From a virus, in IMG/VR virus record IMGVR_UViG_3300005095_000540: 49,767 bases of DNA. One strand, written 5' to 3'. The position numbers were made by a program, and so were the translations under genes. The notes under the pieces were generated by a model. That model ran no database searches and had not been told where the DNA came from. It was given only the letters and a program-made list of their open reading frames with translations. Position 1 is the first letter of the stretch, and the number at the start of each line of letters is the position of its first letter. Of the stretch, positions 25,376-26,168 are shown one piece after another.

Positions 25376-26168
25376 TTTCTCCAGTGGAAACATAGGTATT
25401 TCCATTAGAAAAACTAACCAATCATTATACAAACCATTAAAACACATATATAAACTAGGAGAAAAATATATATAGAACAAAAAGCTTAAAAACAAATGCA
25501 TACTCAAAAATAAGTGCACCAAACCAAAAAGTTAAAATAACAAACAAAATCCCGTTCTAAACACTATAAAACAAAACAATTCAAATTCATACGTATATAG
25601 AAATCAGACAATGGGATAAAAATATATACTCAACCGCTAAAATATATAGCTAAAAATTACTATTTTCGGTGGGCTCCAGTGGAAACAATGGTTAGAAATT
25701 CGAGTTCGAAACACTAACCTTAATGATATTTAATTAAAGTTAGAACCTCTGAATTTTTCCGAACATATGCACAAAAATATAAATACTTTTCGTTTGTATA
25801 AAGAATCATCACGTCCATATTTTTTATTAGAAAATTCTCCAGTGGAAACAAAGCCTGTAAACTCCCCGGTTACCACTATATAAACCTTACTTATAACAAT
25901 ACATCATACATTCACATGAAAACCTCCAGTGGAAACCCGGGTGTAAACCGGGGAGTTTCACTCCATGAAAAACACTCAAAAAACTATAAATACCACGAAA
26001 AAAGTGCACCAAAAAACATATATAAAAGAAACCCTCCAGAACCCGAGCGAAACTATTCAGCTAATAACATATAATTATTTAAAAATAAGAATTGAATGAT
26101 TGACACTTGTCAATCATATATAAACTTTACCCATGATGAGAGCCTACGATTTCCAGTGGAAATAGGGG
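25376..26168 (+). promoter_or_regulatory. Putative archaeal-type replication origin: five ORB boxes in AT-rich DNA
   Basis: CTCCAGTGGAAAC at 25379, 25674, 25837 and 25924; TTCCAGTGGAAATAGGGG with a G-string at 26151; a degenerate inverted copy at 25398-25409. No credible gene in the interval. Confidence 0.8.

Follow-up and report, generated by a model that had tools for sequence, protein, structure and literature searches.

To our knowledge, how most crenarchaeal viruses copy their genomes is not known, since recognisable replication proteins are missing from their gene sets. On the cellular side stand Sulfolobus oriC1 and Aeropyrum pernix oriC1 (ORC1–ORB structures 2V1U and 2QBY), whose boxes are bound by Orc1-1. 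Extrachromosomal replicons that carry host-type initiator sites are well known outside the Archaea: Epstein-Barr virus (EBV) oriP uses the host ORC and MCM but needs the virus's own tether protein EBNA1, and bacterial oriC minichromosomes and plasmid origins carry DnaA boxes, with most such plasmids also encoding Rep.

Among archaeal viruses, STSV1 (Bicaudaviridae; NC_006268) has a putative origin in 1.4 kb of AT-rich intergenic DNA for which repeats and stem-loops are annotated. For the pleolipovirus HHPV4, ORB-type boxes were predicted near the base-disparity minimum with Ori-Finder 2 (PMC5867852), and in Aeropyrum globular virus 1 (AGV1), host ORB/UCM motifs were sought as a sign of autonomous replication and none was found (bioRxiv 10.1101/2021.04.21.440749). 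Here we analysed a stretch of viral DNA of 49,767 nucleotides (hereafter the window; IMG/VR record IMGVR_UViG_3300005095_000540) in which a cluster of boxes has the same ORB core as Sulfolobus and Aeropyrum oriC1.

Like crenarchaeal chromosomal oriC, the locus has G-strings at some of its boxes, an AT-rich candidate region for unwinding and a switch in nucleotide skew. It differs in being virus-borne, with orc1/cdc6 nowhere on the element, in the single orientation of its strong boxes, in G-strings that are degenerate or shifted by 1–2 nt, and in its extent (0.8–1.35 kb versus ~0.3–0.5 kb). STSV1 and the element are both large circles (75 and ~72 kb) with a long AT-rich gene-free candidate-origin zone, and both carry an AAA ATPase, a ‘DnaA-like’ ATPase, giant proteins, glycosyltransferases and DNA methyltransferases; few genes are detectably in common, however, and STSV1 positions 1–4000 contain no TCCAGTGGAAA-like box (up to two mismatches), unlike the element. 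HHPV4 is a 15-kb haloarchaeal virus scanned with generic family ORB patterns, whereas the 72-kb crenarchaeal element matches the origin of its own host in three motif classes. Like EBV oriP and the DnaA-box plasmids, the element combines host-type initiator sites with the lack of an initiator or replicative helicase, but no adaptor corresponding to EBNA1 or Rep was found on it.

The element and its host

An earlier note on this DNA had taken the window for the whole element. The sequence instead continues into contig C44, and the two together give a predicted circle of ~72.4 kb. Two CRISPR spacers of a Desulfurococcales MAG (G000; 1.85 Mb, 79% complete) are 100% identical to the element:

14027–14067: protospacer, identical to a spacer of CRISPR array G000:C2
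22680–22719: protospacer, identical to a spacer of CRISPR array G000:C212

The repeat of the matching arrays is common to this MAG and a same-genus genome. Because two spacers of the same MAG match perfectly, we assigned the element to a Desulfurococcales host; the data point to a virus-like circle that infects a heat-loving archaeon of this order. The MAG contains neither its own oriC contig nor a tsr3 or Orc1-1 gene, and the host comparison therefore drew on same-species and same-genus assemblies.

Protein sequences suggest a distant relationship to STSV/HAV2-type spindle viruses: the AAA ATPase of the element (CDC48-type) is 35% identical to that of HAV2 over 98% of its length and 33% identical to those of STSV1 and STSV2. 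The hallmarks of that group are a CDC48-type AAA ATPase, a DnaA-like ATPase, a major capsid protein and a circular dsDNA genome of 60–76 kb. Orphans make up most of the protein set of the element, and a homolog of a capsid protein was not found on it.

Motifs of the gene-free zone and of host chromosomal origins

The candidate origin lies in a zone where, apart from one 82-aa frame, no ORF of at least 80 aa occurs. Its features, and one outlying box, are as follows:

8241–8251, minus strand: isolated exact ORB, cTCCAGTGGAAAtgtGGGTT, between divergent genes (intergenic region 7992–8303)
24765–25154: 28-bp array, in the left part of the gene-free zone
24783–26845: gene-free AT-rich zone of ~2 kb with origin-like motifs, from the ORF list (GC 0.23–0.41)
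25380–25390, plus strand: ORB1, cTCCAGTGGAAAcataGG, with genus-type flank (compare host TCCAGTGGAAAccataGGG)
25399–25409, minus strand: degenerate inverted ORB, TCTAATGGAAA, two mismatches, head-to-head with ORB1
25421–25434, plus strand: AT-rich motif ATCATTATACAAAC, the same 14-mer being central in host-genus chromosomal oriC
25675–25685, plus strand: ORB2, cTCCAGTGGAAAcaatGG, with 14 nt (AGTGGAAACAATGG) common to the oriC of same-genus G005
25792–25805, minus strand: second AT motif, TTCTTTATACAAAC, also present as an identical 14-mer in the related virus G188:C490, within its origin-like gap
25838–25848, plus strand: ORB3, with a GC motif in reverse orientation 11 nt further on
25860–25871, minus strand: GC motif AACCGGGGAGTT, copy 1, after ORB3
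25925–25935, plus strand: ORB4 with G-string-like cccGGGTG, an ORB + GC-motif composite as in host oriC
25946–25957, plus strand: GC motif AACCGGGGAGTT, copy 2, 10 nt after ORB4 (host gap 11 nt)
26152–26169, plus strand: ORB5 with G-string, TCCAGTGGAAAtaGGGGT, spacer 2 nt versus 4 nt in the family's chromosomal ORBs
26172–26183: degenerate, weaker inverted half-box after ORB5, resembling the inverted box at 25399–25409
26500–26600: skew switch in non-coding DNA, GC skew rising from below to above zero and AT skew doing the reverse
26716–26727, minus strand: GC motif AACCGGGGAGTT, copy 3, forming a perfect 15-nt inverted repeat with 25943–25957

TCCAGTGGAAA is the canonical ORB core and is also present in Thermococcus barophilus oriC/cdc6-deletion primers (PMC11005403). 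Five exact cores fall within 0.8 kb of the gene-free DNA (span 25380–26162; starts 25380, 25675, 25838, 25925 and 26152), all on the plus strand; CTCCAGTGGAAAC is found at 25379, 25674, 25837 and 25924, and TTCCAGTGGAAATAGGGG at 26151. The earlier note's description of four boxes plus one in AT-rich non-coding DNA, all facing the same way and with a degenerate inverted box paired to the first, thus proved accurate. Including the copy at 8241, six exact 11-mers were observed in 2 × 49.8 kb, where ~0.02 are expected by chance. Beyond the element, the rest of the 1.85-Mb MAG has two exact copies of TCCAGTGGAAA, those on C145 and C96, each within a coding sequence.

With respect to G-strings, a spacer of 2 nt separates ORB5 from GGGGT and one of 3 nt separates ORB4 from GGGTG, and ORB1–3 have just GG or none; the element's boxes would count as mini-ORBs. 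Distances between boxes are irregular (295, 163, 87 and 227 bp) and the flanking genes are orphans—an arrangement other than regularly spaced iterons beside a rep gene—and, the 28-bp array aside, no iterons other than the host-type motifs are prominent in the zone. Strong inverted ORBs, present in the chromosomal origins of the family, are absent around the unwinding element, the inverted partners at 25399 and 26172 being degenerate only. GC content is lowest (0.23–0.26) at 25400–25600, a stretch that begins at ATCATTATACAAAC and represents a candidate unwinding element. All three copies of AACCGGGGAGTT and the single copy of ATCATTATACAAAC on the element lie inside the gene-free zone; elsewhere in the MAG, AACCGGGGAGTT has three exact copies, in ORFs, and ATCATTATACAAAC none.

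The cumulative GC-skew minimum is likewise located in the zone. Skew signs hold across genes of either orientation at 21–25 kb and 27–30 kb, so that the switch at ~26.5 kb has the polarity of an origin independently of gene strand. It sits outside the cluster, 350–450 bp rightward of its last ORB, and the replichores it implies are very unequal (~18 versus 54 kb).

The chromosomal oriC of the host lineage adjoins a tsr3-like gene. Full-ORB clusters (TCCAGTGGAAA, 4 nt, GGGGT) occupy the adjacent intergenic region in G008, G019 and G015, and likewise in the host-genus genomes G001, G003 and G005. An ORB core lies directly upstream of orc1-1 in the relatives G036, G019 and G008; host-genus genomes have no ORBs ahead of orc1-1, and none occurs close to the Orc1-2-type gene, either in G000 or in its relatives. 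At the tsr3-like locus of MAG PIR-30, whose Orc1-2 is 98% identical, we found the ORB, AACCGGGGAGTT and ATCATTATACAAAC, each as an exact match.

Three motifs are thus common to the element and host-lineage oriC: the ORB core with genus-specific flank (of the types GGAAACATAGG and GGAAACAATGG in the element), AACCGGGGAGTT and ATCATTATACAAAC. The host-oriC set of ORB core, AACCGGGGRGTT ~11 nt downstream and central ATCATTATACAAAC is found in the element (25380–26727) as well as in L092 (same species) and L065–L067 (same genus). Spacing within the ORB + GC composite is nearly equal on both sides. Module order and orientation in the element differ from those of host oriC, and the likeness is confined to motifs, the longest common run being 19 nt. 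The earlier note's reading of the region as a host-type oriC is borne out as far as sequence goes: the boxes match the canonical ORB, and two extra motifs match oriC of the same species and genus.

The host genus encodes an Orc1-1 ortholog (2QBY_A 7e-128; 2V1U 2e-122); the protein is carried by same-genus genomes, and its orthologs in Sulfolobus and Aeropyrum are Cdc6-1 and ORC1. Glutamine synthetase and Lrp, which flank the G008 origin on its right, are present in G000:C5, with no origin there. The composite-bearing contigs L090 and L094 are chromosomal (POR, rhomboid, amino-acid kinase) and represent further chromosomal origins rather than elements. The published name ‘UCM’ was not applied to ATCATTATACAAAC, the UCM sequence not having been found in the literature searched.

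Replication genes of the element

Six-frame profile searches returned no Orc1/Cdc6, MCM, PolB or PrimPol on the element. The TIGR02928, MCM, DNA_pol_B and Prim-Pol profiles had no match on C169 or C44, with host copies on other contigs; an orc1/cdc6 gene, the usual though not universal neighbour of such origins, is missing beside the element's candidate origin. The host family's chromosomal ORB cluster itself adjoins tsr3, not orc1. Pfam scans, which took in almost all ORFs of at least 100 aa, gave no Rep, primase or PrimPol family match on the element. DNA-metabolism genes are nevertheless present:

4703–6079, minus strand: probable XPD/Rad3-like SF2 helicase, a lead from language-model features and a weak DEAD match
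11477–12337, minus strand: AAA_24/Sak4-like ATPase
12351–13034, minus strand: PD-(D/E)XK Cas4-like nuclease
14922–17354, minus strand: 810-aa SF2 helicase (ResIII + Helicase_C) whose N-terminal ~330 aa are orphan
44762–46198, plus strand: 478-aa P-loop ATPase of the SSV B251/STSV1 ORF69 ‘DnaA-like’ family, the sole labelled initiator candidate

The earlier note had seen no initiator, MCM or polymerase and, more broadly, no recognisable replicative genes. Profiles agree with it on Orc1, MCM, PolB and PrimPol; the broader statement went too far, given two SF2 helicases (one of them probable), a Sak4-like ATPase, a Cas4-like nuclease and the ‘DnaA-like’ ATPase, whose fold is not clearly that of an initiator. 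The relation of this ATPase to the SSV/STSV family is weak, and it has no sequence match in Pfam, NCBIfam or the PDB. Its AlphaFold model (pLDDT 88) comprises a helical N-terminus, a generic ASCE P-loop core and long flanking helices; a DNA-binding domain of the winged-helix or DnaA domain IV type is absent from it. Foldseek ranked RecA/Rad51 first, and in a structure comparison (VIA) AAA+, RecA, HerA and Orc1 all tied at Z 7–9, so that the modelled fold does not clearly place the protein in the initiator clade. Three orphan ORFs in which the earlier note suspected a cryptic initiator (6076, 6996 and 43905) had no match in Pfam, NCBIfam or PHROGs, and any of them may yet be a Rep; the ESM Atlas returned no result for ORF 6996–7991.

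Readings of the locus and its relatives

We consider it probable that ~25.35–26.75 kb is the replication origin of the element, built from host-oriC modules and probably fired by host Orc1-1. The modules would be the ORBs with host-genus flank, AACCGGGGAGTT ~10 nt past an ORB, and ATCATTATACAAAC at the edge of the most meltable stretch. As the element has oriC-type motifs and no initiator gene, it most likely borrows host Orc1 for initiation. Host Orc1-1 would bind the element's ORBs, a host factor that reads AACCGGGGAGTT and ATCATTATACAAAC at oriC would also bind the element, and host MCM and replisome would then be loaded, since genes for Orc1/Cdc6, MCM, a family-B polymerase and PrimPol are missing from the element. 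Orc1 binding, MCM loading and origin firing are steps that we infer from the motifs. The element's SF2 helicases, Sak4-like ATPase and Cas4-like nuclease would in that case act in repair or in replication driven by recombination, and not in initiation.

An origin fired by an initiator of the element's own, with the ORBs as just auxiliary host-factor sites in the manner of DnaA boxes in Rep-dependent plasmids, appears unlikely. Candidates for such a protein are the B251/ORF69-type ATPase, whose family is annotated as a DnaA-like replication initiator in SSVs and STSV1 and has a member in the distant relative G188:C490; the N-terminal domain of the 810-aa helicase, without family match; or another of the many orphans. 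Yet the ATPase model lacks a winged helix and does not discriminate between RecA, AAA+, HerA and Orc1 folds, its gene lies 19 kb away from the origin, no iterons beyond the host-type motifs and the 28-bp array stand out, and all three classes of origin motif are those of the host. We give still less weight to the boxes being Orc1 sites with a non-origin role—transcription control, initiator titration or partition/tethering—on an element whose replication would be started by recombination. The lone exact ORB in the divergent promoter region at 8241, the recombination-type gene set (Sak4-like, Cas4-like, helicases) and the single box orientation, unusual for an origin, speak for such a role, and archaeal Orc1 paralogs are known to act as regulators (PMC9738581). 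On the other hand, the boxes lie 0.7–1.5 kb from the nearest gene starts, the central AT-rich and GC motifs of chromosomal origins fit an origin and not an operator, and the strand-composition switch coincides with the zone.

It is highly improbable that the motifs are functionless passive DNA, either a recombined piece of host origin or the remains of an ORB-bearing MITE-like element as in G019. That genome has ~20 copies of a ~135 bp inverted element whose ends are ORB + GC-motif composites, and the ORB3 module of our element (25836–25876) is similar to one of these ends and equally spaced; movement of crenarchaeal origins between chromosomes and extrachromosomal elements has reportedly been proposed (Robinson and Bell, 2007). 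No matching inverted MITE end follows ORB3, however, no MITE family with this core occurs in the host MAG or same-genus genomes, and 99%-complete genomes carry zero exact copies of the core. Resemblance to host origins by motifs only, in a different order and spacing, argues against recent capture, and the retention of five exact cores in AT-rich non-coding DNA argues for selection.

The locus is a sequence-defined case in which a candidate viral origin can be set against host oriC box for box, with the Orc1-1 ortholog as the predicted binder. The comparison also brings out two extra conserved Desulfurococcales origin motifs, AACCGGGGRGTT and ATCATTATACAAAC, and offers living material for the idea of origin exchange between archaeal chromosomes and extrachromosomal elements. 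Should dependence on Orc1 hold true, the element would form an archaeal parallel to herpesvirus episomes, which rely on ORC and MCM of their host. With more reserve, we propose that there may be a ~72 kb crenarchaeal virus family of ‘oriC parasites’ that carry a functional version of the host's origin grammar (the ORB and the two motifs specific to the lineage) but lack an initiator, a proposal that we hold somewhat short of an even chance. Carrying a copy of the origin without an initiator, such viruses would be licensed by host Orc1-1 and MCM and hence tied to the cell cycle; they would also be natural donors or recipients in the origin capture proposed for multi-origin crenarchaeal chromosomes.

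The distant relative G188:C490 (72,206 bp) has at least 20 genes in common with the element and no Orc1. Its largest non-coding gap contains an ORB on the minus strand, an AT-rich centre with TTCTTTATACAAAC and an ORB on the plus strand with GGGGT. Its bin assignment is doubtful, since GC content is 0.55 in the virus versus 0.46 in the 3.5-kb tsr3 locus of its MAG and that locus has no ORB. Closer relatives are fragmentary: no ORB cluster occurs on the fragments C233 and C117 of a same-MAG relative, and the close relatives P0002, P0004–7 and P0079 lie on contigs of 2–9 kb that end before the origin. In five of the other MAGs with this AAA ATPase, the contig that bears it had no ORB (up to one mismatch), which is uninformative as these contigs are probably fragments. 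Searches of IMG/VR with the Tas-like protein and the helicase returned no relatives, and the ORB + GC composite pattern had no match there. Same-orientation pairs of ORB cores occur on 13 IMG/VR contigs, none of which has an Orc1 homolog; in 6–7 of them, the pairs are tandem repeats of ~21–35 bp.

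A cluster of ORB boxes in gene-free DNA

Five exact copies of the core TCCAGTGGAAA (ORB1 to ORB5), all on the + strand, lie in a gene-free zone whose GC content reaches its minimum of 0.23 at 25400-25550, and a degenerate inverted box accompanies the first. This agrees with the earlier note, which had described five good boxes of one orientation in AT-rich non-coding DNA with an inverted partner near the first. The chance expectation for an exact 11-mer in the window is about 0.02. The 1.85-Mb MAG contains eight exact ORB cores, six in the window and the remaining two within genes.

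Features of the window around the box cluster
24783-26845: gene-free zone holding the five boxes, from the ORF list
25380, 25675, 25838, 25925, 26152 (+): ORB core, exact matches
25399-25409 (-): inverted box, two mismatches
25421: AT motif ATCATTATACAAAC, the one exact copy, bordering the lowest-GC stretch
25860 (-), 25946 (+), 26716 (-): GC motif AACCGGGGAGTT, three exact copies
8241-8251 (-): lone sixth exact ORB, its G-string partial, in the intergenic DNA that separates the XPD-like-helicase operon from the divergent 8304 operon

The wider box reads CTCCAGTGGAAAC in four of the five copies and TTCCAGTGGAAAT followed by AGGGGT in the fifth. ORB1 and ORB5 each start a module of ~55 nt, made up of the ORB, a degenerate inverted box and TTAGAAAAACWAACCAA, and these modules bracket the cluster. 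On sequence grounds the box core is the canonical ORB core, because it stands directly upstream of orc1-1 in relatives (two exact copies in G036, one exact in G019, one with a single mismatch in G008) and in Thermococcus oriC/cdc6 primers (PMC11005403), which bears out the boxes’ initial identification as archaeal ORBs.

Strand composition changes sign in non-coding DNA at ~26.5-26.6 kb, where GC skew turns positive and AT skew turns negative. As the sign is constant across + strand genes (21-25 kb) and - strand genes (27.5-29.6 kb), the skew is not merely a product of gene orientation; it has the polarity of an origin. GC skew goes from positive to negative again over a diffuse zone at 3-9 kb, and the ORB at 8241 lies near it.

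Motifs shared with the oriC of the host lineage

Full ORBs of the host family (cTCCAGTGGAAA, 4 nt, GGGGT) form intergenic clusters, in both orientations, adjoining a tsr3-like ribosome-biogenesis gene. This arrangement was seen in three genera, with housekeeping neighbours including reverse gyrase, glutamine synthetase and a PUA protein; the locus is kept in the host genus (G001, G003, G005) and is also present in PIR-30, a MAG of the host’s own species whose Orc1-2 shares 98% identity with the Orc1-2 of the MAG studied here. In the host-genus and PIR-30 locus, a GC motif (-) and then a full ORB (-) on the left are followed by ATCATTATACAAAC in central AT-rich DNA and, on the right, by a mini-ORB (+) with AACCGGGGAGTT 11 nt on, and then a second such composite.

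All three modules of the host oriC are present in the element zone, where the GC motif at 25946(+) begins 10 nt past ORB4 and the ORBs have genus-type flanks (GGAAACATAGG and GGAAACAATGG, as compared to GGAAACCATAGGG and GGAAACAATGGGG in the host). Elsewhere in the MAG, AACCGGGGAGTT has three exact copies, every one within an ORF, and ATCATTATACAAAC has no exact copy. With genus-type ORBs, AACCGGGGAGTT and ATCATTATACAAAC in common with the host-lineage oriC, the cluster deserves the label ‘host-type’ it had been given. The likeness is limited to the motifs (the longest common run being 19 nt), while their order and spacing differ; the zone therefore reads as a motif grammar under maintenance, and neither as recently acquired chromosomal DNA nor as an assembly chimera.

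Several separate loci combining an ORB with AACCGGGGRGTT were found in some Desulfurococcaceae MAGs (L088, L089, L093, L094, L100, L101), with L090 and L094 shown by Pfam to be chromosomal. They are probably multiple chromosomal origins with a common motif grammar.

A probable virus-like circle and its gene content

Contig C169, the window, is the longest of a MAG (completeness 79%) that relatives of its Orc1 protein place in Desulfurococcales, near Staphylothermus and Thermogladius. The window end is identical over 91 nt to the start of contig C44 (22.7 kb), whose last base joins window base 1; the frame stays open across this junction as a single adhesin-like DUF2341 ORF of 2275 aa. On the simplest reading, the two form a circle of 72,392 bp; a 49,767-bp circle of the window alone is contradicted by the overlap and the in-frame junction.

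Features common to the window and C44
Window 1-1354 and 49677-49767: junction parts, continuing into G000:C44 (L059, L060)
Window 10866-10953 and 36494-36573; C44 10549-10633 and 16845-16896: four copies of a ~80-nt module

The ~80-nt module has a palindrome, TCTAGTTATATATCTAGA and a TATA-like box, with an SD-plus-ATG facing the other way, and is probably a promoter/operator common to the element. CRISPR spacers in two arrays of the same MAG match window 14027-14067 and 22680-22719 at 100% identity; the repeat of these arrays was found in a same-genus genome too. Its contents, the junction and these spacer matches identify the element as a virus, possibly a plasmid, that encounters this host lineage, and not as chromosomal DNA.

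Most of its genes are orphans. Recognisable products include an 810-aa SF2 helicase, an AAA_24/Sak4-like ATPase, a Cas4-like nuclease, an RHH protein, a radical-SAM/DUF5131 protein, a serine resolvase, a Dam-type methylase and GT4 glycosyltransferases; ORF 4703-6079 probably encodes an XPD-like helicase. A CDC48-type AAA ATPase shares 35% identity, across 98% of its length, with a Hyperthermophilic Archaeal Virus 2 protein and 33% with proteins of STSV1 and STSV2.

The earlier note had proposed profile searches for a cryptic initiator or primase on an element seemingly devoid of initiator, MCM and polymerase. Six-frame searches of the whole MAG returned no Orc1/Cdc6, MCM or family-B polymerase on C169 or C44, the MAG’s Orc1/Cdc6, MCM and three family-B polymerases all lying on other contigs, and no Prim-Pol match anywhere in the MAG. 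Pfam scans of nearly all element ORFs of at least 100 aa, and NCBIfam and PHROGs scans of selected ones, detected no replication proteins. The proposed absence thus holds for these profiles and is qualified by one labelled candidate, a 478-aa P-loop ATPase of the fusellovirus B251/STSV1 ORF69 ‘DnaA-like’ family.

The host genus encodes an ortholog of Orc1-1 (2QBY_A, 7e-128; 2V1U, 2e-122), for which binding to ORB DNA is structurally established; the paralog encoded in this MAG belongs to the Orc1-2/ORC2 type. The Pfam match of the host MCM (G000:C241 691-2616), encoded 4 kb from the Orc1-2-type gene, is split in two although the open frame of 1121 aa is continuous, suggesting an intein.

Probable origin function, alternatives and related elements

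The best-supported reading of the sequence is that the zone would act as the element’s replication origin via host-type initiator sites, which would imply that host MCM is loaded. There are reservations: the strong boxes all share one orientation, G-strings are weak or shifted, the skew switch is offset from the cluster, and the replichores implied would be unequal. Alternatively, the element might encode its own initiator, with the ORBs as helpers. The 478-aa ATPase, with 71 homologs among 1.84 billion library proteins, shows no winged helix in its predicted fold (pLDDT 88), which consists of a helical N-terminal half and a generic ASCE P-loop core; Foldseek favoured RecA/Rad51, and an exhaustive structural scan placed AAA+, RecA, HerA and Orc1 level at Z 7-9. 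The ORBs might also have a regulatory or decoy function, or be passive DNA. They may conceivably titrate the host initiator, as the earlier note proposed.

ORB-type origins are textbook knowledge. New on the origin reading is that a large STSV-like crenarchaeal element lacking Orc1, MCM and polymerase mimics an identified host oriC in three motifs, and that another member of its family follows the same principle. ORB patterns have been reported for a haloarchaeal pleolipovirus via Ori-Finder (PMC5867852), and the authors of an Aeropyrum virus paper looked for ORB and UCM motifs of the host without finding any. The annotated origin region of STSV1 lacks such an ORB box.

G188:C490 (72,206 bp, GC 0.55), a distant relative from another Desulfurococcales MAG, has at least 20 genes in common with the element (24-59% identity), and no Orc1 was found on it. 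Its largest gene-free gap is origin-like:

G188:C490 8231-8968: TCCAGTGGAAGccatagg on the - strand and TCCAGAGGAAGccGGGGT on the + strand, around an AT-rich centre with TTCTTTATACAAAC, a 14-mer identical to window 25792

This is the classical inverted-ORB arrangement, with a G-string spacer of 2 nt like that of ORB5. Binning of the contig (loci L116, L117, L113, L118) is doubtful, because a tsr3 locus of that MAG has a GC of 0.46. Closer relatives of the element are known only from short contigs without this region. A second related element in the same MAG, known from fragments G000:C117 and G000:C233, has homologs of ORFs 19023-19700 (57%), 20101-20361 (61%), the Tas-like 22921-23727 (58%) and 36954-37718 (34%); these fragments carry no ORB cluster.

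Many contigs of G019 (e.g. L109-L112) harbor ~20 copies of a ~135-bp MITE-like element whose ends are inverted ORB plus GC-motif composites (TCTCCAGTGGAAA..ACTCCCCGGTTCCACC ... GGTGGAACCCCCCAGTG..TTTCCACTGGAGA). We know of no description of such dispersed ‘mini-origin’-like repeats.

A very clean origin-like unit lies at 600-1070 of metagenome contig Ga0105156_1000285 (L104; 8,770 bp), where full ORBs in inverted orientation, with G-strings and in each case fused to GAAACCGGGGAGTTTC, surround AT-rich DNA that carries four TTTGTATAA(T/A)G motifs. None of the four ORFs tested had a Pfam match, and nearly all ORFs of the contig lack a G000 homolog; 36 nt are 89% identical to window 25925-25959, and the contig may be another element sharing this origin type.
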